Source: an uncultured Fibrobacterota bacterium
Lineage (GTDB): Bacteria > Fibrobacterota > CAYVZU01
NCBI GenBank assembly: GCA_964455935.1
Contig: CAYVZU010000008.1
Location: forward strand, 299-64,298
DNA: 64,000 nt
Direction of reading: 5' to 3'
This document shows, piece after piece, positions 19,269 through 34,809 of this stretch; position 1 is the first letter of the stretch; each line of letters begins with the position of its first letter. Below the pieces are notes generated by a model. The model was not told the DNA's origin. It was given only the letters and a program-made list of their open reading frames with translations, and searched no databases. The position numbers and the translations under genes are program-made.

Positions 19269-20078
19269 TCACCCGTATCGTCCTTCGATGTAGTCGGCTG
19301 TTTTGGGGTTCTGGGGCTTGATGAAAAGCTCTTCTGTGCGGGTGTGTTCGATCACTTCGCCCAGGAGCATGAAAATGCACTCGTCGCTGGCGCGGCGGGC
19401 CTGGGCCATGTTGTGCGTTACGATCGCAATTGTGTAGTTCCCCCGCAGCTTAAACATCAATTCCTCAATGGCCCGCGTGCCTTCCACGTCCAGCGAGGAA
19501 CACGGCTCGTCCATCAAGATCACTTCGGGCTTCAACGGAAGCAGGCGCGCGATACAAAGTTTCTGCTGCTGTTCCAATTGAAGCGTCGTGGCCCTGGCGG
19601 AGAGACGATCCTTGACATCCTTCCAAAGTCCCACCTCGGTTAGCGCGGTTTCGACCGCTTCGTCAAGTTGGGATTTTTGCAGTTGCATGCGCGGCGTGTG
19701 GACGCGAAGCCCAAAAACAACATTCTCGTAAACCGAAATGGGCAAGGGATTGGGTCGCTGAAAGACCATACCCACGCATTTGCGCAGTTCGATCAGCGAA
19801 ACGTCGGCATCATAGATGTTCTTGCCCAGAATTTCGATAACGCCCGCAGTGCGAACGTAGCTATAGCGCTCATTGATTCGGTTGAAGCACCGGAGCAACG
19901 TGGTTTTGCCGCATCCACTGGGGCCGATTAGAGACGTAATCAGGCCGTGCTTGATTTGCACGCTTACATTCTTAAGCGCCTGGAATTTGCCATACCACAG
20001 GTTCAGGTCCCGGGTGATAATGCTGTGAGGGCGTGGGGCATTCATGAAGTTATCCAAAAATACCATTGACATATTCAT
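19269..20078 (-). CDS. pstB: Phosphate ABC transporter ATPase PstB paralog with a degenerate signature motif
   Basis: Walker A GPSGCGKTT, Q-loop GMVFQRPNP, Walker B ILMDEPCSSLD and H-loop VTHNMAQA are all canonical. The signature reads LQLEQQQKL instead of LSGGQ. Confidence 0.85.
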   Translation of the reverse strand: MNMSMVFLDNFMNAPRPHSIITRDLNLWYGKFQALKNVSVQIKHGLITSLIGPSGCGKTTLLRCFNRINERYSYVRTAGVIEILGKNIYDADVSLIELRKCVGMVFQRPNPLPISVYENVVFGLRVHTPRMQLQKSQLDEAVETALTEVGLWKDVKDRLSARATTLQLEQQQKLCIARLLPLKPEVILMDEPCSSLDVEGTRAIEELMFKLRGNYTIAIVTHNMAQARRASDECIFMLLGEVIEHTRTEELFIKPQNPKTADYIEGRYG

Positions 20079-20823
20079 ACGTTTCCCGTCGGGCGGGCTT
20101 GTTGGAAAAAATCACAGCCGTGCGGTCCAGTTCCACGATTTCCCCATTCCACATAAACATCGTGCGGTCGGCCAGCCGCCGGGCCTGGTGGGTAAGATTT
20201 GTCACCAGCAGAATGGTAATCTCTTTGCGGAGTTCTTTGAGAACATCCTCGATGCGCATGGTGGTAACCGGATCGATCGCGATGGAGAATTCGTCGAGGC
20301 ACAAAATTTCCGGCTGGTGCGACAAGGCCCGCGCAATGGTCAGACGCTGCTGCTGGCCGCCCGAAAGTGCCGTTCCCAGACTGTTCAGCCGATCTTTCAC
20401 CTCGTCCCACAGAGCGGCCTGTGTCAGGCATCGTTCCACAATTTCGTCAAGATCGTTTCTTCGTGTAAGGCCGGCGCTGCGGGGCGCGAAAGCGACATTG
20501 TCATAAATACTTAACGGCAGGCCCACGGGAAGCGGGGCGACCATGCCGATCTTGCGCCGCAGGGCATGCACATCTCTTACGCGGCGAATATCTTCACCAT
20601 CAACCCGGATTGTCCCCGACACCAGCGCATTGGCCGTGAAATCGATGGTCCGGTTGAGGCAGCGCAGTAGTGAGGTTTTTCCCGACTGGGCCGGCCCGAT
20701 AATACTGAAGATCTCGTTGCGGTTCACATCGAAGCTGATCCCGTGGATCGCCTCGATCCCGCCGTAACTGACCCGCAGATCACGGACCTCGATCGCCTTG
20801 GGCTCTGTCATGGCGTTTCCCAT
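20050..20823 (-). CDS. pstB: Phosphate ABC transporter ATPase PstB paralog with a canonical signature but degenerate Q/H-loops
   Basis: Signature LSGGQQQRL and Walker A GPAQSGKTS. The Q-loop glutamine is absent (GMVAPLP). Walker B region reads ILCLDEFSIAID. H-loop region reads VTNLTHQA. Confidence 0.85.
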   Translation of the reverse strand: MGNAMTEPKAIEVRDLRVSYGGIEAIHGISFDVNRNEIFSIIGPAQSGKTSLLRCLNRTIDFTANALVSGTIRVDGEDIRRVRDVHALRRKIGMVAPLPVGLPLSIYDNVAFAPRSAGLTRRNDLDEIVERCLTQAALWDEVKDRLNSLGTALSGGQQQRLTIARALSHQPEILCLDEFSIAIDPVTTMRIEDVLKELRKEITILLVTNLTHQARRLADRTMFMWNGEIVELDRTAVIFSNKPARRETYEYVNGIFG

Positions 20824-20976: not shown

Positions 20977-21888
20977 TCACCATTTCTTCCGGTTGCGCAG
21001 CCACACGCGCAGGGCAATGGCGCTGGCATTGACCAGCAGCACGGAACCCAGAAGGACAACGGCGGTCGCGTAGGGAATCGACTCCTTCACGTTGGGCACC
21101 TGTGTGGCCATTGTGTAGAGGTGCATGGAAAGCGCCATGCACTGCTCCGTTAGTTTATAGGGGAACAGATCCCCACGCTCGACCACCTTGAAAAAGACCG
21201 CGCCCGTAAACATGATGGGCGCGGTTTCGCCGGCAGCCCGGCTCACCTGGAGGATGATGCCGGTTAAGATTCCGCTGATCGAGTTAGGCAGAACAATGGC
21301 CTTGATTGTCTGCCAGCGCGTTGCCCCCACATTCCAGCATGCCTCGCGAAACGATTTGGGAACGGAAGCCAGCGCTTCGCGCGTGCTGGCGATGATGACC
21401 GGCAGAGTCATGATGGAAAGGGTGAGGGCGGCCGAGATAATGGAATAGCCAAAGCGCGCCGCATAGACAAAGGCTCCAAGCCCAAACAAAGCGTGTACAA
21501 TGCTGGGCACGCCCGCCAGGTTGATCACGGCGAGGTTGATGATGCGGTTGAACCAGTTGTCTTTGGCATACTCGTTCAGATAAATGGCAGCCATCACGCC
21601 CACGGGCGCCGAGACTGCAAGGGAGATTCCCACCAGGTATAAAGTTCCTACAAAGGCCGGCCAAATGCCTCCTTCGCGCATGCCGCTTCTGGGAATGTCG
21701 ATGAGAAACTCCAGATTCAGCGACGGCGCGGCGCGCACCAGGAGGTAGGCCACAATCGCGACCAGGGGAATCACCATCATCAGGGCCATTGCCCAGAAAA
21801 CCCATTTGGCAATGGACTGGGTCAGTTCCTTGCGGCCGCCATATGCGGTTTGCCGGAATCGAGTTACCGTATGGGTATTTTCGGCCAT
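20977..21888 (-). CDS. pstA: Phosphate ABC transporter permease PstA
   Basis: Start taken at MAENTH (21888). The ORF-track extension to 22209 overlaps pstC. EAA-like loop and PstA-like TM layout. Confidence 0.8.
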   Translation of the reverse strand: MAENTHTVTRFRQTAYGGRKELTQSIAKWVFWAMALMMVIPLVAIVAYLLVRAAPSLNLEFLIDIPRSGMREGGIWPAFVGTLYLVGISLAVSAPVGVMAAIYLNEYAKDNWFNRIINLAVINLAGVPSIVHALFGLGAFVYAARFGYSIISAALTLSIMTLPVIIASTREALASVPKSFREACWNVGATRWQTIKAIVLPNSISGILTGIILQVSRAAGETAPIMFTGAVFFKVVERGDLFPYKLTEQCMALSMHLYTMATQVPNVKESIPYATAVVLLGSVLLVNASAIALRVWLRNRKKW

Positions 21889-21893
21889 TAACT

Positions 21894-22826
21894 CTATTTT
21901 CTCCGGATGCCGCGAATGACGAAATCCGCGGTCAGGTTTACGGCAAAGGTAATGCAGAACAGCAGAACCCCGGTCAGAAACAGCACGCGGTAGTGATCGG
22001 ACCCGGCCGGCGCTTCGCCCAGTTCGGCGGCGATGTTGGCGGTGAGGGTTCGAATGGAATCGACAAGGCTGACCGGGATTGTGACTGCGTGGCCCGTTGT
22101 CATAAGCACGGCCATCGTCTCCCCCACGGCCCGGCCCACGCCCAGCAGCACAGCCGCCAGAAGCCCGTTTTTGGCCGCGGGCAGCAGCACGCGATAGATG
22201 GTCTGCCACTTCGTGCTTCCCATGGCCAGGGAGGCCTCGCGAAACGAATCGGGCACCGCCTTTAAGGCGTCCTCGCCGATGGAGACAATGATGGGCACGC
22301 TCATCAGGGCCAGAACGATCCCGCCGTTAAGCAGGTTCACGCCCACCGGGGCGCCGGTATATGCGGTAATCAGCTTGCTCATCACCGTGAGGCCGATGAA
22401 GCCCCAGACAACGCTGGGAATTGCGGCCAGCAGCTCAATGACGATCTTTAGCGTCTCCTTCGCCTTCGGGCTGCAGAATTCCGAAATGTAAATGGCGGCG
22501 CCCAGTCCAAACGGCACGGCAATGACCATGGCCAGGGCGGTCACGGCGACACTTCCGACCGTCAGGGCGAAAGTCCCGTAACGAACATGAACGGCCGAGG
22601 TTGGGTACCATTTGGTGCTGAAAAGAAATTCGAGCAGATGAAAATCCTCGCTGACCAGGACCGGCAATGCTTCGCGAAAGATGAAGATGAAAATGGCCAG
22701 GACAAAAATGATCGCACTGACGCCGCTGAGGCGGATCAGGCCTTCCAGCGCTTTCTCACCGGCCACAAGCCATGGGGAACGGGTGGGGCGTTTTCCGTGC
22801 GCGGGAATGGATTTTGATACCATCAT
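21894..22826 (-). CDS. pstC: Phosphate ABC transporter permease PstC
   Basis: Conserved SLAMGSTKWQT..LP block. The start overlaps the pstS stop (ATGATGA). Confidence 0.85.
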   Translation of the reverse strand: MMVSKSIPAHGKRPTRSPWLVAGEKALEGLIRLSGVSAIIFVLAIFIFIFREALPVLVSEDFHLLEFLFSTKWYPTSAVHVRYGTFALTVGSVAVTALAMVIAVPFGLGAAIYISEFCSPKAKETLKIVIELLAAIPSVVWGFIGLTVMSKLITAYTGAPVGVNLLNGGIVLALMSVPIIVSIGEDALKAVPDSFREASLAMGSTKWQTIYRVLLPAAKNGLLAAVLLGVGRAVGETMAVLMTTGHAVTIPVSLVDSIRTLTANIAAELGEAPAGSDHYRVLFLTGVLLFCITFAVNLTADFVIRGIRRK

Positions 22827-23740
22827 GAGCGCGAGGCAATTCCTGTATTGTTGTCAGGCACAGGCACGAATCCGCTTTCCTCCACGATCTTCTGCCCGGC
22901 CGGTGATAAAATCCAGTCGATGTACTTGCGGACCGCGCCATGGGGCTGACCCAAGGTGTAGAGCAACAGCGATCGGGCGAGGGGGTAGGTTTTATTTTGC
23001 GTGTTCTCCACGGTCGGCGCGTAGGCCGGTTGGCCGGCTGCCGCCGCGATGTTGAGCATTTTCACCGTTCCCATTGCGTATCCCATGCCGCTGTAACCAA
23101 TAGCGGTCCGGGCGCTTCCGATCAGTTCGACCGTTTCTTTGGAGCCGCTCATGTCGCGCGAACCGAGTTTGAAATCCTTGCTGTGGAGGACGCGCTCGCG
23201 AAAAAACTCGTAGGTTCCGGAACTGGACTGTCGGCTTACCCGCACGATCCTGTCGTCTTTCACACCGGGAATGGTGACGCCCAGCTGCGACCAATTTGTG
23301 ATATCGCCACCGTCGGCAAAGATCCGGGCCAATTGTTCGAACGTGATGTCGATGAGCGGATTCTCTTTGTGCACGTAAACGGCCAAGGCGTCGAACGCGG
23401 CGATGAATTCAACCGGATCCTTGCCGGTGTGTTCCTTGGCCCGCGCAATTTCCTTCGCTTTCATATTGCGGCTGGCATTGGCGATATCCACGGCCCCGCG
23501 TTCCAAGGCGGCAATGCCCACGCCCGAGCCGCCGCCGGACACTTCGATTTCCACGGAGGGCTCGACCCGCTTGTATTGCTCGGCCCAGGCCTGGGCCAGG
23601 TTGACGATTGTATCCGAGCCTTTGACCTGAATGACGGTCCCCGACCGGTTCCCGCGGTTGTTTCCGCAGCCCAGCAACAACAGCAGACCGGCGAAGCCCA
23701 GGGCGAGACGGGTGCGCGTTGCGAAGGATAGGGCCGGCAT
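22823..23740 (-). CDS. pstS: Periplasmic phosphate-binding protein PstS, lipoprotein
   Basis: Start taken at MPALSF (23740), giving a signal peptide plus LLGCG lipobox. PBP-like VIQVKGSDT motif. Confidence 0.85.
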   Translation of the reverse strand: MPALSFATRTRLALGFAGLLLLLGCGNNRGNRSGTVIQVKGSDTIVNLAQAWAEQYKRVEPSVEIEVSGGGSGVGIAALERGAVDIANASRNMKAKEIARAKEHTGKDPVEFIAAFDALAVYVHKENPLIDITFEQLARIFADGGDITNWSQLGVTIPGVKDDRIVRVSRQSSSGTYEFFRERVLHSKDFKLGSRDMSGSKETVELIGSARTAIGYSGMGYAMGTVKMLNIAAAAGQPAYAPTVENTQNKTYPLARSLLLYTLGQPHGAVRKYIDWILSPAGQKIVEESGFVPVPDNNTGIASRS

Positions 23741-23744
23741 TTTT

Positions 23745-24869
23745 CTATCTGGTTTCCGTACCCAGAATTGCCTGCACAAGATCGACAATGTGGGAATTGA
23801 TGAACTGGAATGCGGCATCGTACGAGGCCCGTACTTTCTCGGACGGCCCCTGGACCAGGGAGGGGTCCTCGATGTTCCAATCGAGCAGGACGACTTTGCG
23901 CGGCGATTGCGGCAAAGCCTTGTGCACCTCTTTGGACAGGATAATGATGACCTGATAATATTCGAGATTGGGGATCTGGTAGATTGATTTTGGCGCGGTC
24001 CGTTCGAGATTGAATCCCTTCTCCTTCATATATTCTATCGTGCGGGCGTCCACCGGCTTGGGTTCCAGTCCCGCGCTGCTAAAAATGAAGCGGGGCTGGT
24101 TGAGACCGCTGGCAATGGCCTCGGCCATTTGGCCGCGGCAGGAATTGTGGTTGTCGACAAACAAGATTCGGAATGCCTGCGAGGCCGGGTGCTTGGCAAC
24201 CTCGCCGGTCACCATGTATATCGCTTCCATGCAGATGTTGCGGGCCTGGTCGGAAACCCGTTCAAATCGCCGGACCAGGGTCATGAGGGGATCGAACACA
24301 TCAAACGGGATTTTCTGCTCCTGGAACTCCCGCACAATGTTGTTGTTGAGCTTGTTTCGCATGGCATTGACAGCCTCCTCCACCCCGAAGGTGGCGCGGG
24401 CCAGGTCGGCATTTTGCTCGAAAAGAGACTGGGTCGCATCCTGGTACATGGTGATGGCGAGCTTGGCCAGCTCCAGGATTCCCTGCTTAATTTCGGCCGG
24501 GGCCCGGTTTTCGAGCCGCAGGATGTTGTGGGCGATACTTTCGGCATAATCGCCGACCCGTTCCAGCTCAAGATTAATGCGGATTGTGGTGTAAGCGAAA
24601 CGGAGCGGACGGGCAACCGGTTGTTGGCGCACAAGGAATTCGAGGCAGAGCCGGTCGATCTCCTTTTCCTTCTCGTTGATGTATTGGTCGCGCAGGATCA
24701 CGGCATAGGCGAGCTGCCGATTATTCTCAACAAGGGCCTTTACGCAGTCTTGCAGGGCCTTTTCGGCCAGCTTGGCCATTTCGGTCACCTGGTTGCGGAT
24801 TCTAGAGATATCACGCTCAAGGGATTCTTCCAAGTGCGTATGCATAGTCCTCCGTAGTCCCTCCAACAC
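23745..24869 (-). CDS. PhoU domain fused to an LMWP (ArsC / low-molecular-weight phosphatase)-like domain
   Basis: The N-terminal ~220 aa are PhoU-like repeats. The C-terminal domain ILFVDNHNSCRGQMAEAI aligns to the ArsC/LMW-PTP P-loop (C-x-G-N-x-C-R) with the nucleophile Cys replaced by Asp. A later DP motif (EDPS) is present. Confidence 0.75.
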   Translation of the reverse strand: MLEGLRRTMHTHLEESLERDISRIRNQVTEMAKLAEKALQDCVKALVENNRQLAYAVILRDQYINEKEKEIDRLCLEFLVRQQPVARPLRFAYTTIRINLELERVGDYAESIAHNILRLENRAPAEIKQGILELAKLAITMYQDATQSLFEQNADLARATFGVEEAVNAMRNKLNNNIVREFQEQKIPFDVFDPLMTLVRRFERVSDQARNICMEAIYMVTGEVAKHPASQAFRILFVDNHNSCRGQMAEAIASGLNQPRFIFSSAGLEPKPVDARTIEYMKEKGFNLERTAPKSIYQIPNLEYYQVIIILSKEVHKALPQSPRKVVLLDWNIEDPSLVQGPSEKVRASYDAAFQFINSHIVDLVQAILGTETR

Positions 24870-24910
24870 AATCGCCGAATACTTGAAGACCTCTAAAATA
24901 ACATATGAAA

Positions 24911-24939
24911 TGTTAGCGCTGTGTTAGACTTGTGTTAGA
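24911..24939. promoter_or_regulatory. Pho-box-like array: three 7-bp direct repeats TGTTAG(C/A) with 11-bp periodicity
   Basis: Repeats at 24911, 24922 and 24933. This matches the architecture of PhoB/PhoP boxes (7-nt repeats separated by 4 nt), in the divergent promoter between the phoU-fusion/pst operon and phoBR. Confidence 0.55.
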
Positions 24940-25124
24940 ATTCTTTCTATATAAATCTTCTTACCTCGGGCGGTTTCAATAGAAAAAAGCATTGGGGGAA
25001 AATCCATATTTTGGTCAATCCGATCCCTTTTCCGTCCGGGTTTTGCTATTTTTTGCATGATGCGTGTGATTTCTTTTGAAATTCTAGCGAAATTCAAACA
25101 AACCGTCCGTATTTTGGATTAAGC

Positions 25125-25823
25125 ATGGCAAAGCTCAGCGTACTTATTATTGAAGACGAAGAGCCCATTGCGGAGCTCATCCGGTATAATCTGGAGAGGG
25201 AAGGATACTTAGTTGCAACGGCTTTCTCCGGTGAAGAAGCCTTGCTTGAAGTCGACGTCCGGCCCACCCACTTGGTGCTTCTGGATCTAATGTTGCCCGG
25301 CATTGACGGGCTTGAAGTCTGCCGCCGGCTGAAGGCCAACCCCAAAACAGCCGCTATCCCGGTGATCATGCTTACGGCCAAAGGCGAGGAGTCCGATATT
25401 GTGACCGGCCTGGAATTGGGGGCCGATGATTACATGGTGAAGCCGTTCAGCCCCAAGATTCTTGTCGCGCGCATCCGGGCCGTTTTGCGTCGCAAGACGT
25501 CAACCACGTTCCGGGCCGAGACCCTGAGTATACACAACATGATCATCCATTCGGGCCGGCATGAAGTTACGGTGTCGAACCGGAAAATCGACCTGTCGGC
25601 GGCGGAGTTTCGCATTCTCCATTTTCTCGCGAGCCGGCCGGGGTGGGTCTTCACCCGGGGCCAGATCGTCGATGCCGTAAAGGGCGAGAACTATCCGGTC
25701 ACGGACCGATCCGTGGATGTGGCGCTGGTCGCCTTGCGCAGGAAGCTTGGTTCCGCGGCGGAATATATTGAGACGGTCCGCGGGGTGGGATATCGGTTCC
25801 GTGAGCCGGAGGAATGGCAATAG
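25125..25823 (+). CDS. phoB: OmpR-family response regulator PhoB
   Basis: Receiver domain (D..LLDLMLPG) plus a winged-helix (RVDVALVALRRKL). Confidence 0.9.
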   Translation: MAKLSVLIIEDEEPIAELIRYNLEREGYLVATAFSGEEALLEVDVRPTHLVLLDLMLPGIDGLEVCRRLKANPKTAAIPVIMLTAKGEESDIVTGLELGADDYMVKPFSPKILVARIRAVLRRKTSTTFRAETLSIHNMIIHSGRHEVTVSNRKIDLSAAEFRILHFLASRPGWVFTRGQIVDAVKGENYPVTDRSVDVALVALRRKLGSAAEYIETVRGVGYRFREPEEWQ

Positions 25824-27598
25824 GTATGCCCAAACAGAAATTATTCCGCAGAATCTTCCTGTATCTTCTCCTGCTTTCCGTTGGCGGCATAGCCATGCTT
25901 ACATGGGTCGAGGCACGACAGTTCCGCAAATCCTACCTGCGTCAGACGGAGGACGGGCTGCGGGACCGCGCCTTTCTCTTGCGTGCGGCGCTTTTGCCGC
26001 TGTTTCAACCTGCGAATCTGGCCGGGGCCGATTCCATTTGCGACCTTCTGACGGCTTCGCCGTCCCGCGTAACCCTGATCCTGCCGGATGGACAAGTCAT
26101 CGCCGATTCCAAGGCCAACCCCGACTCCATGGAAAACCACAAGGATCGACCTGAAATTCGTGAAGCCCTGGATGGCAAAATGGGGGTTTATTCTCGCTTC
26201 AGTGCCACAAGAAATCAGGGAATGATGTACGTGGCATTGCCTGTTTTCGAACAGGGGAAATTGGTGGGTGTCGTGCGGATTTCCTTGTCCCTGGCCGAAA
26301 TTACGACAGGAATTCGAGTCATTCACAAAAGGATGGTTATTGCGGCGCTATTCGTTCTTATGATGGTGATCCTGCTAAGCCACCTCTTGTCAAAACAGAT
26401 CGCCCGCCCCATCAGTGATCTGGAAACAGGGGCTGACCGGCTGGCAAATGGCGATTTCGGCGCCAAGCTGGCCGAGGGGCCATTTGAGGAGACCTCGCGT
26501 CTTGCCCATGCCATGAATGTCATGGCTGTGCAATTGCGGGAGCGTTTCCAGACTATTCTAGAGCAAAAAAAGAAACAGGAAGCGGTGGTCAACAGCATGT
26601 CGGAAGGCGTAATTGCCATGGATACTCAGATGCGGATTATGGAGCTAAATCCCGCGGCCGCCGGAATGCTTCAGACAACCATCGAAGCGGTCCGCGGCCG
26701 GAAAGCGCACGCGATTGTCCGCAACAGCGAATTGCAGGATTTGATCGAGCGAACTCTGGCAGGCGAAAAACCGGTCGAGGCCGAAATCAAATGGAAGCGC
26801 CCGGATGGCGAATGCTTCCTGCAGGCCCACGGGACATCGATTCGCGATGAAACCGGCCGGCCGGTTGGCGGACTGATTGTCCTCAACGACATTACCGGGA
26901 TCCGGAAACTAGAGAGGCTACGCCGTGATTTTGTGGCCAATGTCTCGCACGAACTCCGCACGCCTTTGACTTCCATTAAAGGGTTTGCCGAAACTTTGGT
27001 GCAGAATGCCCAATCAATGAATCCGGAGGACTTGCGCCATTTCCTGTCCATTATGGTCCAGCAGGCCGACCGGCTCAATGCGCTGGTGGACGATCTTCTC
27101 ACCCTGTCGCGCATCGAGGACCAGGAAGAAAAAAGGGGGCTCCAATTGGAAAGCGTTGATCTTTCCGGCATCTTGCTGGCCGCGCGCGATGCTGTGCTGG
27201 TGCAGGCCAATAATAAAGGCATTACCATTGAGGTGGAGGCGGCGCAGGGCCTTTCGGTCCGGGCCAGTCCGGTCATGATCGAGCAGGCTGTGACCAATCT
27301 GCTGGATAACGCAATCAAGTACAGCCCCGATGCAAGCCAAATCCGTGTTGTGGGGACACAGGAAGGCGGCCTGGTGAGTATTTCCGTTATTGACCAGGGC
27401 ATTGGCATCGAATCACGACACATCCCGCATTTATTCGAGCGATTCTACCGAGTGGATAAGGCCCGCAGCCGCAAGGCCGGAGGAACCGGATTGGGGCTTT
27501 CCATTGTCAAACACATCATGTCCCTGCACGGCGGCCGGGTGGACGTGCAAAGCGTCCCGGGAAAAGGCAGTACGTTTACCCTTACCGTTCCAGCCTGA
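25814..27598 (+). CDS. phoR: Sensor histidine kinase PhoR-like (TM, HAMP, PAS, HisKA, HATPase_c)
   Basis: H-box HELRTPLTSIKG, with N/G1/G2 boxes. Overlaps the phoB stop. The alternative ATG is at 25826. Confidence 0.9.
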   Translation: MAIGMPKQKLFRRIFLYLLLLSVGGIAMLTWVEARQFRKSYLRQTEDGLRDRAFLLRAALLPLFQPANLAGADSICDLLTASPSRVTLILPDGQVIADSKANPDSMENHKDRPEIREALDGKMGVYSRFSATRNQGMMYVALPVFEQGKLVGVVRISLSLAEITTGIRVIHKRMVIAALFVLMMVILLSHLLSKQIARPISDLETGADRLANGDFGAKLAEGPFEETSRLAHAMNVMAVQLRERFQTILEQKKKQEAVVNSMSEGVIAMDTQMRIMELNPAAAGMLQTTIEAVRGRKAHAIVRNSELQDLIERTLAGEKPVEAEIKWKRPDGECFLQAHGTSIRDETGRPVGGLIVLNDITGIRKLERLRRDFVANVSHELRTPLTSIKGFAETLVQNAQSMNPEDLRHFLSIMVQQADRLNALVDDLLTLSRIEDQEEKRGLQLESVDLSGILLAARDAVLVQANNKGITIEVEAAQGLSVRASPVMIEQAVTNLLDNAIKYSPDASQIRVVGTQEGGLVSISVIDQGIGIESRHIPHLFERFYRVDKARSRKAGGTGLGLSIVKHIMSLHGGRVDVQSVPGKGSTFTLTVPA

Positions 27599-27692: not shown

Positions 27693-28001
27693 ATGGCCAA
27701 CAAATCCCCTTGGTATCTGAATCTGTCTCCTTTGGGTGCCGCTTACCAGCATTTTTCTAATGCCGCCAAACAGAAGACCGTATTGGATCCCAAAACAAAA
27801 GAGCTGTTAAGAGTCGCCGTGGCCTCGGTATTCCGATGCGAACATTGCACGGAACATCACATCAAGGACGCTCTCGGCGCCGGTGCCACGAAACAGGAGA
27901 TTGCGGAGGCAATCCTTCTGGCTTCGTTGCAGTCTGCCGGCACGCAGCTCAATTGGAACGAAGAGCTGTTTAGCGAACACCTCGTCGATAAGCCGCAATA
28001 G
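27693..28001 (+). CDS. Carboxymuconolactone decarboxylase / AhpD-like family protein
   Basis: RCEHCTEHH motif and the expected size (102 aa). Confidence 0.65.
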   Translation: MANKSPWYLNLSPLGAAYQHFSNAAKQKTVLDPKTKELLRVAVASVFRCEHCTEHHIKDALGAGATKQEIAEAILLASLQSAGTQLNWNEELFSEHLVDKPQ

Positions 28002-28279
28002 CGAAATCGGGCGATTTCTGCTCCCCGGCACCGGGTTGGTTTGGCGGCCAGAGCCGCCTTTCGCCCGTAGCTTCCATCCGTGCACTCTAGCACATTCCTA
28101 ACATCCACCTAATCCAGCGCGCATTTTCCATTGCGACTTTATGGTCCAGGTCTAGCCAAGGACTAACACGGGGCCAATCGCAACGTAACCCGCACAGGTG
28201 ATCTTATACGCCAATCGGCTGGGTGCCGGTTCCGTGAAGGCGGGACGCGGAAGAACCCGTAAAAGGGAGGGGGAAGAGA

Positions 28280-29797
28280 ATGAGAAAGATCCTTTCATTA
28301 TTCGTGGTTCTTGGCCTGACGGGGACTGTTCTGGCGCAGGCCCTGGACACCGCCGCGGCGGCAGACGAAAGCCGGACGGCCGCAAACCAAGAGCGGCTCA
28401 AGTCATTGGAGGGCAAAGCTGACGGTCTCAACAAGTCCTACTTGGAAACCAAATCCACCGTTGACAAGCTGGCAAAAATCAAGATTTCAGGCTACATTCA
28501 GACTCAAGCGCGCATGCCTACGGACTATGATGCGGCCACGGATTCAAGCCTCACCCATTCCGCCTGGGGCAAGTATCAGTACAAGGTGGGCGACTTCGCC
28601 GGCGGTGCCTTTTCCGATCGGGTTTCGAGCGCATTCGAAGTTCGTCGCGGCAGAGTTAAAATCGCCTATGAAACGGCATTGAGCATGGCTGTTGCGCAGC
28701 TCGATATTATCCCCTTTAGGTCCGCCAATTTTCTTCAAAGCGTGACCACAACAACAACGCGTGACACAATAGCCGACAGCCTGGGTGTCAACCATGTCGT
28801 AACCCGGTCCGCCACAACAACATCAACCAGCAGCGCGGCCCTCACCGGCGGCGGTGTTAGCGTGAAGGATATTTATCTGAGATTCACCGAGCGCTGGTAC
28901 AAGAGCTTCGCGCTTAAAATGGGTATTTTCGACAGGCCCTTTGGCTTTGAAATCGGCTACAGTTCCAGTTCCCGCGAATCGCCCGAGCGCTCCAGGGCCG
29001 AGCAGACCCTGTTCCCCGGCGAGCGCGATTTGGGCGTTTCACTTGAATACTTACCCGCGGACAACATGCCGGTTTGGGCTCAGCATTTGAATTTTAAGGG
29101 CGGCTTCTTTACTGGAAACGGGATTAACGTGGAAACCGACGGTAAGCGCGACTTCATTGGCCGGCTGGGCGTTACCTTCCCGTTTAATGAGCTGAACTTC
29201 GCGGTTGACGGTGGCGCCTCCCTCTACAATGGCTCGGTCCTTTCCCAGAACGATTCGGTTTTTGAAATCAGCGGCACATCCTTTGCGCCGGAAACCGGTA
29301 ATAAGAATGAATATATCGACCACCGGTACTTTGGCGGCGATGTGCAAATCTATTACGGAAATACCCCGGTCATTGGTGGAACCACGTTGCGCCTGGAAGG
29401 ATACGTAGGCTCCCAGCCCGGTTCCAAGACCAGCAATTCCTCTCCAAAATCCGACATGCCCAGCTCGGCCCAGATTTACAAACGCAATTTTCTGGGCGGC
29501 TATGTTATGCTGGTTCAAAACCTCGATCCCATTAAAAGCCAGCTTGCGCTCCGCTATGATTGGTTTGATCCGAATACGGAAATCGAGGGGACACAGGTCA
29601 GTTTTCAGGAAACCCAGACCACCGACCAGAGATACGGTACGCTGGGGATTGGCGAGGTTTATCACTGGGACGAGAATGTGAAATTCATCGCTTACCTCGA
29701 CAAGATTTCTAACGAGGAAATCACGGATAGCCGGGCGATCTTTACCGATGATGTTGAGGACAACGTTTTCACTTTCCGTGTCCAATACAAATTCTAA
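28280..29797 (+). CDS. Phosphate-selective porin O/P family outer-membrane protein
   Basis: Signal peptide, N-terminal coiled-coil, beta-rich body, and a C-terminal aromatic residue (..QYKF). Sits immediately upstream of pstS. Confidence 0.7.
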   Translation: MRKILSLFVVLGLTGTVLAQALDTAAAADESRTAANQERLKSLEGKADGLNKSYLETKSTVDKLAKIKISGYIQTQARMPTDYDAATDSSLTHSAWGKYQYKVGDFAGGAFSDRVSSAFEVRRGRVKIAYETALSMAVAQLDIIPFRSANFLQSVTTTTTRDTIADSLGVNHVVTRSATTTSTSSAALTGGGVSVKDIYLRFTERWYKSFALKMGIFDRPFGFEIGYSSSSRESPERSRAEQTLFPGERDLGVSLEYLPADNMPVWAQHLNFKGGFFTGNGINVETDGKRDFIGRLGVTFPFNELNFAVDGGASLYNGSVLSQNDSVFEISGTSFAPETGNKNEYIDHRYFGGDVQIYYGNTPVIGGTTLRLEGYVGSQPGSKTSNSSPKSDMPSSAQIYKRNFLGGYVMLVQNLDPIKSQLALRYDWFDPNTEIEGTQVSFQETQTTDQRYGTLGIGEVYHWDENVKFIAYLDKISNEEITDSRAIFTDDVEDNVFTFRVQYKF

Positions 29798-29851
29798 GAA
29801 AGACGGGTGGTTCATGCATAAGACATCCTATCACTCTTACAAGGAGATGTT

Positions 29852-30673
29852 ATGCGGAAAATTCTTGTCCTGCTGAGCATGGTCTTGTTGAGCGCACTGG
29901 CCTTCGGCAAGACCGTGATCACAGTAAAAGGCTCCGACACCATGGTTATCCTGGCCCAGCGCTGGGCCGAGATGTATATGGCCGCTCATCCCGATGTGAC
30001 GGTGCAGGTCACGGGTGGCGGATCGGGAACCGGAATTTCGGCCCTCATCAATGGCACTACGGATATCTGCAATGCTTCCCGACCCATGAAGGGAAGCGAA
30101 CGGGAGAAACTCAAACAGCGCTATAACTCTCTGGGCGTGGAAATTAAGGCGGCCAAGGACGGGCTTTCCGTCTATCTGAACGAAGACAATACAGTTACGG
30201 AACTAAGTTTGGCCCAGATTCGCAGCATCTACCTGGGCAGCATTACAAACTGGAAAGAGGTGGGCGGCAACGATGCCAAAATCATCCTTTATGGCCGTGA
30301 AAACAATTCAGGGACCTACGTTTATTTCCGGGATTTCGTCCTCAAGGGCCAGGACTTTTCGCCTCAGACCCAGACATTGCCGGGAACGGCCGCGGTCGTA
30401 AATGCGGTCGCAAAAGATAAAAACGGGATCGGCTATGGCGGCGCTGCTTATGCCAAGGGCATTCGCTTCGCCCAGGTCAAGGCTGACGAGAACAGCCCCG
30501 GATACGAGCCCAACGCCGAAAATGTCAAAAAGAACCTGTATCCGATCAGCCGGTATCTCTATCTGTACACCCGAAGCAGGCCTACGGGTGAAGTGAAGAA
30601 ATACATCGACTGGATCCTGAGCCCCGAAGGCCAATCCGTTGTCGAGAAGGTCGGATATTTCCCGGTGCGATAA
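29852..30673 (+). CDS. pstS: Phosphate-binding protein PstS (second system)
   Basis: Signal peptide. TVKGSDTM..GGGSGTG PBP motifs. Confidence 0.9.
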   Translation: MRKILVLLSMVLLSALAFGKTVITVKGSDTMVILAQRWAEMYMAAHPDVTVQVTGGGSGTGISALINGTTDICNASRPMKGSEREKLKQRYNSLGVEIKAAKDGLSVYLNEDNTVTELSLAQIRSIYLGSITNWKEVGGNDAKIILYGRENNSGTYVYFRDFVLKGQDFSPQTQTLPGTAAVVNAVAKDKNGIGYGGAAYAKGIRFAQVKADENSPGYEPNAENVKKNLYPISRYLYLYTRSRPTGEVKKYIDWILSPEGQSVVEKVGYFPVR

Positions 30674-30735
30674 TGGATCGAGTCTGTTCAGCGCCCCCTT
30701 CCCATCCTTCCCCCGCAGGGGGCAGGTGCTTAAGG

Positions 30736-30770
30736 AAGTCCCCCTACGGGGGATTTAGGGGGCGTTTTAC
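30736..30770 (+). terminator. GC hairpins between pstS and pstC (attenuator/terminator-like)
   Basis: CCCCCGCAGGGGG and CCCCCTACGGGGG stems, followed by ATTT. Confidence 0.4.
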
Positions 30771-30775
30771 CAGCG

Positions 30776-31795
30776 GTGGAAGCCAAGATGAATTTTCGTA
30801 GGCTCCGGCTTCGCATTGCCGAATTCATTGCCGAGAAGGCGATTTTCGCGATTGCGCTCTTCTCGCTGGCCTGTATTGTCCTGATCTTCGTGTTCGTGTT
30901 TCGCGAAGCCGCAACCCTGTTTGTTAATCGATCTCCTGCATCATCCCAAAACGCACTGGAGCAGCAGGAAACCTACGGTGACGAGGGTCTGGAAGATTCT
31001 CCCCCGCCTGATGAATTGGTCGAGAAGGAAAAGGCGATCCGCTTTCGGGACTTGTGGTGCACGATCTGGCAGCCCGTGTCGTTGCACCCGCGATACGGGC
31101 TTCTGCCGCTTCTGGCCGGCAGTCTGAAGGTGACGTTGATTGCGATTCTTTTCGGTGCGCCGATCGCGATTCTAGCCGCGCTCTTTACAATAGCCTTTGC
31201 GCCGCGCTGGTCCAAGGAAATTCTGAAGCCGGCGATCGAGATTTTGTCGGGGTTTCCCTCCGTGGTGATCGGCTTCTTTGCTCTCGTTGTCATGGCCTCC
31301 TTTCTCCAGAAGCTTTTTGGACTGGAGTACCGGCTAAACGCATTCGTAGGCGGGCTTGCGCTTTCGCTGGCCGTCATTCCCATCATCTACACGATCTCCG
31401 AGGATTCTCTTTCGGCCGTTCCCAAGTCTCTGAGCGAGGCGAGCCTTGCCCTGGGGGCAGCCAAGTGGGAAACCGTGCTGTTCGTGATGCTGCCCGCGGC
31501 CACGCCCGGCATTTTCGCCGCGATCCTCCTTGGCTTTGGCCGTGCCTTTGGCGAAACCATGATCGTGCTGATGGCCACGGGCAATGCAGCGCTTCTTTCG
31601 TTCGATGTACTGGAGCCTGTGCGCACCATGTCGGCCACCATTGGCGCGGAAATGGCCGAGGTGGTCTTTGGCGATACACATTACAGCGTTCTCTTTATGA
31701 TTGGCGCCATCCTATTTGTCATCTCCTTCGGACTCAATGCAATAGCCGAGGTGTTCGTGCGCCAGCGTTTGATGAAACGATTCAAAGGTGGATAA
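30776..31795 (+). CDS. pstC: Phosphate ABC transporter permease PstC
   Basis: GTG at 30776 (ATG at 30788). EAA-like loop SLALGAAKWETV. Confidence 0.9.
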   Translation: MEAKMNFRRLRLRIAEFIAEKAIFAIALFSLACIVLIFVFVFREAATLFVNRSPASSQNALEQQETYGDEGLEDSPPPDELVEKEKAIRFRDLWCTIWQPVSLHPRYGLLPLLAGSLKVTLIAILFGAPIAILAALFTIAFAPRWSKEILKPAIEILSGFPSVVIGFFALVVMASFLQKLFGLEYRLNAFVGGLALSLAVIPIIYTISEDSLSAVPKSLSEASLALGAAKWETVLFVMLPAATPGIFAAILLGFGRAFGETMIVLMATGNAALLSFDVLEPVRTMSATIGAEMAEVVFGDTHYSVLFMIGAILFVISFGLNAIAEVFVRQRLMKRFKGG

Positions 31796-32698
31796 GTGAG
31801 GTTTAGGAAATCATTGTACGGCGCCTCGGTCTTTGGAATCACGGCCTTTTGCGCGGGTATTATTTTGACCGCCCTGGTGATCATGATGACCACCATTGTC
31901 CTGGGCGGCTACAAGCATATCACATGGACATTCCTGACCGCGGCGCCTGCGGAGGGCATGACCGCCGGCGGGATCTTCCCGGCCATTGTGGGAACATTCT
32001 GGCTTGTACTGCTCATGTCCCTGGCCGGCGTGCCGGTGGGCACGGCCACAGCCCTTTACCTGTGCGAATACGTCCGCCAGCGATCGATCATCGTGCGCGC
32101 CATCCGTTTCGCCGTCAACACCCTGGCGGGAATCCCATCCATCGTTTTCGGGCTCTTTGGCCTGGGATTTTTTATCCAGTTCGTGGGAAAAAGCGCCGAT
32201 TCGCTGCTGTTGGGACCCGGCGTGGTGAAATGGGGACAGCCCAATCTGCTATGGGCCAGTCTCACCATGGCCGTCCTCACCCTGCCCGTGGTGATTGTCT
32301 CGGTGGAGGAGGCCATCAAGAACATGCCGCAAGAATATCGCGAGGCAAGCTTCGCCCTGGGCGCGACCAAGTGGCAGACAATTCGGCAGGTGGTCATTCC
32401 TCATTCCCTCACCGGTATGTTCACGGGCAGCATTCTGGCAATCAACAGAGGCGCAGGCGAGGTCGCTCCCATTCTCTTCACCGGAGTGGCCTACTTCCTT
32501 CCGCACCTTCCCTCGGATTTATCGGACCAGTTCATGCACCTGGGCTATCACGTCTATATCATGGCAACGCAATCAACCAACGTGGAGCAGACAATGGGAA
32601 TCCAGTACGCGACCACTCTCGTGCTGCTGTTTCTGGCCTTCACGCTGAACCTGGGGGCCATTTTGCTGCGGTATCGGATTCGGAGGAGGATGGCCTAG
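31796..32698 (+). CDS. pstA: Phosphate ABC transporter permease PstA
   Basis: GTG start directly after the pstC stop. SFALGATKWQTI motif. Confidence 0.9.
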   Translation: MRFRKSLYGASVFGITAFCAGIILTALVIMMTTIVLGGYKHITWTFLTAAPAEGMTAGGIFPAIVGTFWLVLLMSLAGVPVGTATALYLCEYVRQRSIIVRAIRFAVNTLAGIPSIVFGLFGLGFFIQFVGKSADSLLLGPGVVKWGQPNLLWASLTMAVLTLPVVIVSVEEAIKNMPQEYREASFALGATKWQTIRQVVIPHSLTGMFTGSILAINRGAGEVAPILFTGVAYFLPHLPSDLSDQFMHLGYHVYIMATQSTNVEQTMGIQYATTLVLLFLAFTLNLGAILLRYRIRRRMA

Positions 32699-32716
32699 CA
32701 TGGCCGGAACACCATA

Positions 32717-33475
32717 ATGAGCGCCTATAAGACAATAATCCGCAATTTGAACTTCTTTTACGGAAGCCAACAGGCTCTTTTCGACATCACCATGGATATT
32801 GAGCCGTTTCAGGTCACGTCGCTGATCGGACCTTCGGGGTGCGGCAAATCCACATTTCTGCGCACGCTCAACCGCATGAATGATCTAATCGAGAATACCC
32901 GGGTCACCGGCGAGGTGATCGTCGACGGCCAGGACATTTATGGCAAGAAGGTGGATGTCGTGGCCTTGCGAAAGAAGGTTGGAATGGTCTTTCAGAAATC
33001 AAACCCATTCCCAAAAACAATTTTCGACAATGTCGCCTTCGGCCCCAGAATTCACGGGATTCACAACACAAACCGGCTTAACGAAATCGTGGAGAGCTGC
33101 CTGCTCCGGTCGGGCCTTTGGGATGAGGTCAAAGATCGGCTGCACACAAGCGCACTGGGTCTCTCGGGCGGTCAGCAGCAGCGGTTGTGCATCGCGCGCG
33201 CCCTGGCCGTGGACCCGGCAATTTTGCTGATGGATGAACCCGCTTCGGCCCTTGACCCGCGCTCGACCGCTAAGATCGAGGATCTGATTGCCGAATTGCG
33301 GAAGAACTATACCATCATCATTGTCACGCACAACATGCAGCAGGCCTCGCGCGTTTCCGATATCACGGCCTTCTTCTACGAGGGCCGCCTCATTGAAATG
33401 GGGCCAACCCGAAAGATCTTCACGAAACCCGACATCAAACAAACCGAAGACTATATCACCGGAAGATTTGGATAA
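32717..33475 (+). CDS. pstB: Phosphate ABC transporter ATPase PstB (fully canonical)
   Basis: Walker [10 protein letters not shown], signature LSGGQQQRL, Walker [12 protein letters not shown] and H-loop VTHNMQQA are all canonical. Confidence 0.95.
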
Positions 33476-33488
33476 GCGAGGAACCACC

Positions 33489-34169
33489 ATGGCAGTCCAC
33501 ATGCGCCGCGAGATCGACAAACTTAATCAGCAACTGCTTGAGCTTGGTACGCGGGTCGAAGAGGCGGTTGTGGCGGCCATTGCCGCCGTGGAGGAACAGG
33601 ACGTCGAGTCCGCCCGGCAGGTGATCCAAAACGACGAGCGAATCGATCGCAGTGAAATTGAGGTGGAAGAGGAATGCCTCAAGATTCTTGCCCTTTATCA
33701 GCCCGTGGCCATTGATCTCCGGTTCATTGTCGCGGTACTCAAGATCAACGGCGATTTGGAGAGGATTGGCGATCTGGCCGTTAATATCGCCGAACGGGCC
33801 ATGCTCCTGGCGTCCAAAGATGCGCCTTCCGTCGACTTCGATTTCCATCGAATGTCCCAGGAAGCCCTGGCCATGCTCAAGCAAAGCCTGGACGCACTGG
33901 TCAACATGGATGCCAACTTGGCCTATCGAGTCCTGAAATCCGATGATGAAATTGATTCTTTAAACCGCCAGAATTACGACAAAGTCATGTACGCTATCAA
34001 CAGCAATGCCCAGCACGCCAAGATCATGATCCATTACCTGAGCATTTCCCGTTTTCTCGAACGCCTGGCGGACCATGCCACCAATATTGCGGAAGACGTT
34101 ATCTATCTGGCGACCGGCGAGATCGTGCGCCATGCCGGAGAACAGGACAGGCCGACTTCTAACCCTTGA
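33489..34169 (+). CDS. phoU: Phosphate signalling regulator PhoU
   Basis: Start taken at MAVHMRREI (33489). Two PhoU repeats. Confidence 0.9.
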   Translation: MAVHMRREIDKLNQQLLELGTRVEEAVVAAIAAVEEQDVESARQVIQNDERIDRSEIEVEEECLKILALYQPVAIDLRFIVAVLKINGDLERIGDLAVNIAERAMLLASKDAPSVDFDFHRMSQEALAMLKQSLDALVNMDANLAYRVLKSDDEIDSLNRQNYDKVMYAINSNAQHAKIMIHYLSISRFLERLADHATNIAEDVIYLATGEIVRHAGEQDRPTSNP

Positions 34170-34269
34170 GCCGCCCAAGACCAGCCATTGAACAGGGCCT
34201 GGCATCTGGTTTGCTTATCTGGTTTGATTAATAGTGGCCGCGCATCCGCCAATCATTTATGGAGGAATC

Positions 34270-34809
34270 ATGCCTATCAAAACAGAGCAGGAAGAAAAGA
34301 TCAGCACGCAAGCGATGATGGAAGTGTACACGAAACTTGGAACCCCTGGCGCTCCCCATCAGTTTCTCGCCAGTTCGGCTGGAAGCTGGAAAATCACAGT
34401 CAAATCATGGATGGAGCCCGGCATGCCTCCAACGGAAAGCACTGGAACCAGCGAACTGAAGATGATCATGGGCGGCCGGTTTCTTCAGGAAGAGTTCACC
34501 GGTGAAATGATGGGGAAGAAGTTCACCGGCTTGGGGATTACAGGATACGATAATCATACGAAGAAATACGTGTCGACCTGGATCGACTCCATGGGGACCG
34601 CCATGCTCTTTTTCGAAGGATTCACCGACCCGGAAAACAGGGTTCTCACCCTGAAGAGCCGCTATGACGACCCATTCAAGGGTTCCATGACCTGGCGTTC
34701 GGTGACCACACACGTGGATGAAAACACTTGCCTTGTTGAAATGTGCAGCGTTGATCGGAGCGGCAAGGAAGAGAAGATGATGGAGATGTCCTACGTGCGC
34801 AGGCGCTAG
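34270..34809 (+). CDS. DUF1579-like protein
   Basis: ATG at 34270 with a GGAGGA RBS. The alternative start is 34234. Family assignment is from memory. Confidence 0.45.
   Translation: MPIKTEQEEKISTQAMMEVYTKLGTPGAPHQFLASSAGSWKITVKSWMEPGMPPTESTGTSELKMIMGGRFLQEEFTGEMMGKKFTGLGITGYDNHTKKYVSTWIDSMGTAMLFFEGFTDPENRVLTLKSRYDDPFKGSMTWRSVTTHVDENTCLVEMCSVDRSGKEEKMMEMSYVRRR

Follow-up and report, generated by a model that had tools for sequence, protein, structure and literature searches.

PhoU, a bundle of helices, links the Pst phosphate importer to the PhoR kinase and holds the transporter in check. In Salmonella and Escherichia coli, PhoU binds the PAS and kinase domains of PhoR and forms a bridge to PstSCAB (PMC9239213, PMC4423584). 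Here we describe a phoU gene in a 64,000-nucleotide stretch of DNA from an uncultured Fibrobacterota bacterium (contig CAYVZU010000008.1; this whole stretch, which derives from a groundwater metagenome, is hereafter called the window). In this gene, which is the first of a pst operon, the PhoU part is fused to a C-terminal domain of the low-molecular-weight phosphatase (LMWP) fold. This domain resembles the ArsC arsenate reductases and appears, judged by its sequence, to be a pseudoenzyme.

The closest described system for the N-terminal part is canonical PhoU (E. coli and Salmonella; structures 1T72 from Aquifex aeolicus and 4Q25 from Pseudomonas aeruginosa). The fusion shares with it the two PhoU repeats, both E-x3-D motifs, the pst gene context, and the fold, the PhoU part of an AlphaFold2 (AF2) model having a template modeling (TM) score of 0.95 to each of the two structures in Foldseek comparisons. 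In contrast to canonical PhoU, the fusion carries an additional C-terminal LMWP domain of about 140 amino acids, its gene is the first rather than the last of the operon, and its PstB partners are two unequal proteins. With the thioredoxin-coupled ArsC enzymes (Staphylococcus aureus pI258 and Bacillus subtilis 1JL3), the fusion shares N-S-C-R, QMAE, S-A-G, and the W-x3-D-P loop, but it lacks Cys10, Cys82, and Cys89, is not part of an ars operon, and is joined to PhoU. The low-molecular-weight protein tyrosine/arginine phosphatases (LMW-PTPs; Wzb, YwlE, and bovine LMW-PTP) belong to the same superfamily, whereas the fusion has no nucleophilic Cys and is closer to ArsC.

Loss of the nucleophile from such a fold has precedents. 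In pseudophosphatases of the STYX and LMW-PTP types, the latter including LMW-PTP members so classified in Drosophila (PMC7772506), the fold is likewise selected after the nucleophile was lost, with a presumed binding or regulatory role. The fusion differs from these in being bacterial, ArsC-derived, and covalently attached to a transport regulator, and in that the P-loop Arg is variable in its wider family. For the transporter, a report on Enterococcus faecalis describes tandem pstB1 and pstB2 genes of Firmicutes with non-equivalent roles (PMC12096839). The two PstB proteins associated with the fusion have complementary motif losses that predict one degenerate ATP site, and their operon starts with the PhoU fusion instead of ending with phoU. 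A literature search on degenerate heterodimeric PstB gave, among the eight papers listed, one that matched in full (PMC11466899, on ABC transporter systems of Bacillus subtilis). Full-text literature searches returned no paper on the PhoU-LMWPc/ArsC fusion architecture, databases annotate such fusion proteins just as "PhoU", and none of the Foldseek matches is a solved structure that spans both the PhoU and LMWP domains.

The fusion protein and its degenerate active site

Residue numbers follow the 374-amino-acid open reading frame (ORF) found on the minus strand at 23745..24869, in which GTG 24869 is residue 1 and ATG 24845 is residue 9. The preliminary description of this locus had taken all 374 amino acids as the product; this is corrected here to 366. 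ATG 24845 is likely the start codon: it is closely preceded by GGAGG, the public protein P0001 (NCBI, JGI, and ENA) is 100% identical at a length of 366 amino acids, and the Met at 24845 is the start in 115 of 120 homologues. These 120 close homologues, on which all statistics for close relatives below are based, are the best database matches, with 57–64% identity, the same length, and the same two Pfam domains. The gene and its parts are as follows.

23745..24845, minus strand: phoU-LMWP fusion gene, 366 amino acids plus stop, likely start ATG 24845 (GTG 24869 for the 374-amino-acid ORF)
24192..24845, minus strand: PhoU domain, residues 9–226, two PhoU repeats in a helical bundle (PF01895 twice, TIGR02135, AF2)
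24549..24563, minus strand: first PhoU E-x3-D motif, E103-R-V-G-D107, with E103, G106, and D107 invariant in 120/120 homologues
24249..24263, minus strand: second PhoU E-x3-D motif, E203-R-V-S-D207, with E203 and D207 invariant in 120/120 homologues
24171..24191, minus strand: inter-domain linker H227–F233, family consensus KHPGAEAF, with K226, H227, and G229 at least 96% conserved
23760..24170, minus strand: ArsC-type LMWP-fold domain, catalytically degenerate, residues 234–370 (Pfam, NCBIfam, Foldseek)
24132..24155, minus strand: degenerate P-loop D239-N-H-N-S-C-R-G246, equivalent to C-x5-R-S/T (phmmer and profile alignment)
23859..23882, minus strand: D330-W-N-I-E-D335-P-S337, equivalent of the ArsC/LMWP "DP" general-acid loop, with D330, W331, D335, and P336 at least 98% conserved in close homologues

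The N-terminal part is a genuine PhoU. Pfam PF01895 matches it in two stretches (109.8 bits against a cutoff of 23.5; E 8.6e-32), and the N-terminal 220 amino acids score 149.3 bits against the NCBIfam model phoU_full (TIGR02135), above the equivalog cutoff of 130.25. In the AF2 model, residues 4–213 are entirely helical and adopt the six-helix bundle of PhoU. A gap-free alignment with the canonical PhoU of the same window shows 26% identity for this part. The linker that follows is near-invariant among homologues (TGE(Y/V)AKHPG or TGEYAKHPGAE), and the C-terminus of the canonical PhoU, TGEIVRH, is equivalent to the position of this linker.

Several comparisons indicate that the C-terminal domain descends from the ArsC (thioredoxin-type) branch of the LMWP superfamily. 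Residues 235–360 match Pfam LMWPc (PF01451) over profile positions 1–139 of 144, scoring 51.6 bits (gathering score 23.2; E 1.5e-13). The NCBIfam model arsC_pI258_fam (TIGR02691) gives 54.8 bits, far below its equivalog cutoff of 174.3, yet it is the nearest family for the C-terminus. The AF2 model, based on 38 homologues and having a predicted local distance difference test score of 89.4, has a canonical strand–P-loop–helix arrangement at residues 233–255, and its C-terminal half has a TM score of 0.86 to B. subtilis ArsC (1JL3) and of about 0.65–0.73 to LMW-PTPs. The next-nearest proteins that are not fused to PhoU are ordinary ArsC-like enzymes with the full set of cysteines.

The active site itself is degenerate. 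The motif ILFVDNHNSCRGQMAEAI occupies residues 235–252, and its loop reads D-x5-R-G in place of the LMW-PTP signature C-x5-R-(S/T) with its nucleophilic Cys. In phmmer alignments, D239 falls in the catalytic-residue column of Deinococcus indicus ArsC2 (8P5N) and of the Synechocystis-type chains 2L17, 2L19, and 2MYU, the aligned segments being FVDNHNSCRGQ in the fusion and FVCKRNSCRSQ or FLCTGNTARSQ in the ArsC chains. A profile alignment with canonical ArsC-like proteins likewise places D239 opposite their Cys, and it aligns the Cys82/Cys89 segment of ArsC (VCDxxxxxCP) with ILSKEVHKALP in the fusion. With Cys10, Cys82, and Cys89 replaced by D239, S312, and L319, respectively, the fusion has no redox relay, and the only Cys of the C-terminal domain is C244, equivalent to ArsC Cys15. 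The loss of all three reactive cysteines indicates that this domain is a pseudoenzyme, acting neither as an arsenate reductase nor as a Cys-based or tyrosine phosphatase. The residue after the P-loop Arg, which is Ser in the family, is Gly246 in this protein. The general-acid D-P loop of LMW-PTPs is present as D335-P336 and is at least 99% conserved, which does not imply catalytic use; it lies within EDPS (residues 334–337), and HW-x3-DP is found in the canonical ArsC-like matches as well.

Much of this agrees with the preliminary description, which had recognized the PhoU-like N-terminal region of about 220 amino acids, the LMWP/ArsC-like C-terminal domain, the Asp in the nucleophile column, and the QMAE stretch and EDPS (DP motif). 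The structure prediction that it had suggested yielded a confident AF2 fold, the PhoU and ArsC halves of which were both matched by Foldseek.

Degenerate LMWP domains were also seen in another arrangement. The unfused tandem-LMWP proteins P0209, P0218, and P0225 have one copy with a degenerate P-loop (e.g., LFLSRDDQALSQ) and another with a canonical C-x5-R. Pairing of a pseudo-LMWP domain with an active one is thus seen outside the PhoU fusion.

Distribution and conservation of the fused family

As had been proposed for a follow-up, other genomes were searched for the same fusion, and at least 312 species-level genomes (one genome per species scanned) proved to encode relatives, the best 80 of which match residues 1–366. 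These genomes represent at least six phyla, namely Fibrobacterota, Acidobacteriota, Desulfobacterota, Verrucomicrobiota, Lentisphaerota, and Myxococcota. The carriers include Fibrobacterota/Chitinivibrionales, Vicinamibacteria and Holophagales among the Acidobacteriota, Desulfobacterota, Myxococcota, Lentisphaerota, and Raymondbacteria; among the Verrucomicrobiota, they include Opitutaceae, Akkermansiaceae, Limisphaerales, and metagenome-assembled genomes (MAGs) labelled Methylacidiphilum. In addition, an exhaustive search of 1.84 billion cluster representatives, made with just the C-terminal domain, gave 131 clusters at E<=1e-10, and 29 full-length PhoU-fused cluster representatives were used as a diverged set.

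Mean pairwise identity among the 120 close homologues is 62% for the C-terminal domain and 66% for the PhoU domain, which indicates purifying selection on both. Because the C-terminal domain is nearly as conserved as the PhoU domain and the linker is near-invariant, the gene is neither a product of a frameshift nor a decaying remnant. A frameshift in sequencing or assembly that merged a separate phoU with a small arsC-like gene, a possibility raised in the preliminary description, has a negligible probability and is ruled out. Independent JGI, ENA, and NCBI assemblies yield the same 366-amino-acid product, and the architecture is shared by the 120 colinear homologues, in which the length is constant and the linker kept, and by 312 genomes, with continuous matches over residues 1–366.

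Conservation within the C-terminal domain is uneven. In the close homologues, position 239 is Asp in 83, Gly in 36, and Cys in one; Gly at this position is characteristic of an acidobacterial clade (14/26 loci). The neighbouring positions are more constant, with an acidic residue at 240 in 105/120 (88%), His at 241 in 106/120 (88%), N242 in 117/120 (97.5%), and C244 in 118/120 (98%); position 246 is Ser in 112 and Gly in eight. Conservation reaches 98–100% at A249/E250, 100% at S-A-G (265–267), and at least 98% at D-W-x3-D-P (330–336). The family also has conserved motifs of its own that are absent from ArsC: P293-K, Q298-V-P300, and F319-P-x2-P-R-K325. Among the 29 diverged representatives, the nucleophile column contains Asp in 19, Ser in five, and Gly in two (three others not itemised), and only the fold-core residues L236, F237, A249, SAG, and W331 are near-invariant. 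The nucleophile Cys is retained in one Desulfobacterium MAG. These patterns indicate that catalysis is lost throughout the fused family.

In the close clade, the cluster D/E-H-x2-C (acidic 240, His241, and Cys244) is more conserved than the former nucleophile position. This cluster may have a metal-binding or redox role.

The operon, its PstB pair, and the surrounding genes

The fusion gene heads a pst operon, as the preliminary description had recognized; this operon has six genes, in the order phoU-LMWP, pstS, pstC, pstA, pstB_a, and pstB_b. The genes downstream of the fusion are as follows.

22823..23740, minus strand: pstS, lipoprotein phosphate-binding protein (Pfam PBP_like_2), signal LLLLLGC
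21894..22826, minus strand: pstC permease (Pfam BPD_transp_1), position conserved in related loci
20977..21888, minus strand: pstA permease (Pfam BPD_transp_1)
20050..20823, minus strand: pstB_a, Walker A altered to GPAQSGKTS, Q-loop Gln missing, Asn in place of the H-loop His, signature LSGGQ intact
19269..20078, minus strand: pstB_b, Walker A, Q-loop, Walker B, and H-loop of consensus type, signature degenerate (LQLEQ for LSGGQ)

The two PstB proteins are clearly unequal. Against the PstB equivalog model TIGR00972 (cutoff 343.2), PstB_a scores 272.4 and PstB_b 323.5, both below the cutoff; the PstB of a second pst operon in the window (see below) scores 406.3 and passes. PstB_a is 78–86% identical across phyla, and the complementary motif states of the two proteins are conserved in approximately 60 loci each. 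The established architecture of ATP-binding cassette transporters predicts that a PstB_a/PstB_b dimer would have one consensus and one degenerate ATP site. The fusion nearly always comes first in such operons, and its association with this pair is strict: the same gene order was found in 80 related loci, both PstB_a and PstB_b are present in 56 of the 56 loci with at least 5.5 kb of downstream sequence, and a search begun from PstB_a arrives at the same six-gene module.

The preliminary description had the fusion gene overlapping the start of pstS. This overlap is not real. The pstS start is most likely ATG 23740, on which the JGI and ENA gene calls agree, and this codon lies 4 nt beyond the stop of the fusion gene, the two genes being tightly coupled. 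A longer pstS ORF from 23818 was rejected, because ATG 23740 accounts for the signal peptide and agrees with the public annotations.

Other elements of the locus are listed here.

24911..24938, minus strand: three Pho-box-like CTAACA hexamers with 11-bp spacing, 66–93 nt upstream of the ATG, in sense orientation
25125..25823 and 25814..27598, plus strand: phoB and phoR, divergent from the fusion gene with a common intergenic region (Pfam; PnpS/PhoR-type NCBIfam matches)
28280..34169, plus strand: second pst operon, encoding a 505-amino-acid outer-membrane-like protein, pstS, pstC, pstA, pstB, and canonical phoU

The Pho box of E. coli is CTGTCA-N5-CTGTCA, which the CTAACA repeats upstream of the fusion gene resemble. 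Read in the direction of the gene, these hexamers are followed by TATGTTATTTT (TATGTT/TATTTT). The spaced-pair hexamer pattern has five matches in the window, compared with 1.28 expected, and all of them lie upstream of the two pst operons, the second of which has its own Pho-box-like array in sense orientation (28087..28168). A sigma-70 consensus scan of 24700–25250 found no −35/−10 pair, which is compatible with, and no proof of, a PhoB-dependent promoter; the lack of a −35 would be expected if Pho boxes replace this element. The Pho-box-like region that had been noted upstream of the gene is thus present, and the promoter itself is putative.

Since the second operon encodes a canonical PhoU, the fusion is an additional, operon-specific PhoU. 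The other neighbours in the window include pst and pho genes, a peptidase, an amylase-family enzyme, and Kup. The 505-amino-acid protein has no Pfam or NCBIfam match and ends in ...RVQYKF; it is outer-membrane beta-barrel-like and is possibly a phosphate porin. In the PhoR-type kinase (594 amino acids), a single-Cache-like periplasmic region at the N-terminus and a HAMP domain precede the PAS domain, and the best NCBIfam match of the kinase is PnpS/WalK-like, slightly under the cutoffs. PhoR of E. coli has no periplasmic sensor domain. PhoR and the second pst operon are separated by a small gene of the carboxymuconolactone-decarboxylase/AhpD family (102 amino acids; 27693..28001, plus strand). 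The canonical phoU is immediately followed by a gene for a DUF1579 protein (34234..34809, plus strand), and this in turn by one for a Kup-type potassium transporter (34894..36795, minus strand).

Possible roles of the ArsC-like domain

The C-terminal domain is very probably a non-catalytic regulatory domain. For the system as a whole, we favor, with moderate confidence, the reading that the fusion acts as a PhoU dedicated to an asymmetric transporter and carries a dead ArsC-like regulatory or docking domain with oxyanion input. A PhoB-type (Pho-box) promoter would drive the module, of which the fusion is the first product, and the fusion would serve the PstB_a/PstB_b transporter specifically. 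By analogy with model organisms, its PhoU part may contact PstB and PhoR, while the dead ArsC-like domain would supply a regulatory or docking input. This domain may bind a cytoplasmic tetrahedral oxyanion non-covalently, phosphate being the ligand and arsenate a mimic of it, and such binding would presumably strengthen the PhoU brake on uptake (i.e., trans-inhibition). Oxyanion binding is favored as the input because the P-loop is largely intact in this clade (Asn242, Cys244, Arg245, and the helix start) and its predicted geometry is canonical. As a property of this clade, it is put forward only tentatively.

A number of observations weigh against this reading, particularly against its oxyanion step. 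The predicted TM score of the AF2 model is 0.60, and the relative placement of the PhoU and LMWP domains is uncertain. In this protein, Gly246 stands in place of Ser after the Arg. R245 is found in 99/120 (83%) of the close homologues and is otherwise Cys, Leu, or Ala. The Opitutaceae loop, DEHDACLT, combines Arg to Leu with Asn to Asp, and the Arg is changed to Gln in several Verrucomicrobiota and Fibrobacterota (genome loci with Gln or Leu at this position). Among the 29 diverged representatives, the Arg column contains Leu in 13, Arg in six, and Ala in three (seven others not itemised). The second Cys and the Arg, which the preliminary description had called conserved, are both present in this protein. 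These comparisons indicate that the P-loop Arg is kept in the populous clade of this protein and is dispensable in the wider family. Because the Arg is mostly Leu in the diverged fused relatives, an anion-binding P-loop cannot be the family-wide function, and one function for the whole family could not depend on a canonical loop of this kind. Asp239, which alternates with Gly and Ser, is not a selected feature in itself. Furthermore, the role of PhoU, as a brake on the transporter or a partner of PhoR, varies between organisms.

The variability of the P-loop across the whole family is fitted at least as well by ligand-free docking. In that case, the P-loop would be empty, and the domain would be a protein interface for PhoU dimerisation or for docking on PhoR or on the degenerate side of PstB_a/PstB_b. 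This would agree with the diverged representatives, in which the fold core is near-invariant and the P-loop columns are free to vary, with the conserved linker and the family-specific surface motifs that ArsC lacks, and with the strict co-occurrence with the asymmetric PstB pair (56/56 loci). What a pure scaffold leaves unexplained is that, in the clade of this protein, conservation at N242, C244, R245, and S246 exceeds the average of the domain. As a full account it is somewhat unlikely, and the scaffold and oxyanion readings are not mutually exclusive.

Retention or re-invention of an enzyme activity is highly improbable. A phosphatase, or an enzyme acting on acyl- or phosphoramidate-phosphates (phospho-PhoB or phospho-PhoR), could be imagined to use Asp239, or Cys244 with His241, and the conservation of the Arg, the DP loop, Cys244 (98%), His241 (88%), and acidic 240 (88%) in the close homologues, together with the canonical predicted geometry of the P-loop, would be in line with it. 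However, position 239 holds Gly in 36/120 close homologues, including those at 14/26 loci of Acidobacteriota, with Ser, Glu, or Tyr in other sequences, and His241, Cys244, and Arg245 are each variable among the diverged fused members. In addition, the P-loop Cys equivalent to Cys244 (Cys15 of pI258 ArsC, Cys17 of LMW-PTP) is not a nucleophile, and the C15A variant of ArsC remains active. An essential nucleophilic role for Asp239 was ruled out, Gly and Ser taking its place in whole clades. A dedicated arsenate sensor, in which the arsenate preference of ArsC is kept and PhoU closes the transporter upon arsenate entry, is very unlikely as well. The closest catalytic relatives by sequence and fold are indeed arsenate reductases and not tyrosine phosphatases, and arsenate mimics phosphate for uptake systems. 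On the other hand, no arsenic-resistance (ars) genes were found around the locus in the window or among the Pfam-annotated neighbours of one related locus, the P-loop is variable, and the sequence offers no discrimination between arsenate and phosphate. The phosphate or arsenate sensor envisaged in the preliminary description is thus only partly borne out: the fusion, the fold, and the dead nucleophile support it, whereas the unconserved Asp, the variable Arg, and the lack of nearby ars genes do not.

Returning to the favored reading of a dedicated PhoU with a regulatory domain, a bolder extension is that the fusion and the degenerate PstB pair constitute a distinct and widespread class of importer. 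The dead domain would then be a receptor for inorganic phosphate (Pi) or arsenate that docks at, or signals to, the non-hydrolytic ATP site and gates uptake. We consider this extension speculative and rather unlikely.

The fusion is a clear bacterial case of an arsenate reductase turned pseudoenzyme. Even in E. coli and Salmonella, the way in which PhoU and Pst signal the phosphate status of the cell remains a question, and to our knowledge the intracellular Pi sensor of the Pst/PhoU circuit has never been pinned down in model bacteria. If the extended model were true, the family would have a built-in intracellular Pi sensor for this circuit. The family provides a testable handle, as it combines PhoU with an oxyanion-binding fold whose ancestry is known and which forms a separable domain, and as it is tied to a transporter with a predicted degenerate ATP site. 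Its interest lies mainly in the chance that it offers an input to the Pst/PhoU circuit from inside the cell that is open to experiment. Finally, members of the family are frequent among the Acidobacteriota, Verrucomicrobiota, Desulfobacterota, and Fibrobacterota of soil, groundwater, and sediments, and the family may bear on phosphorus cycling there.

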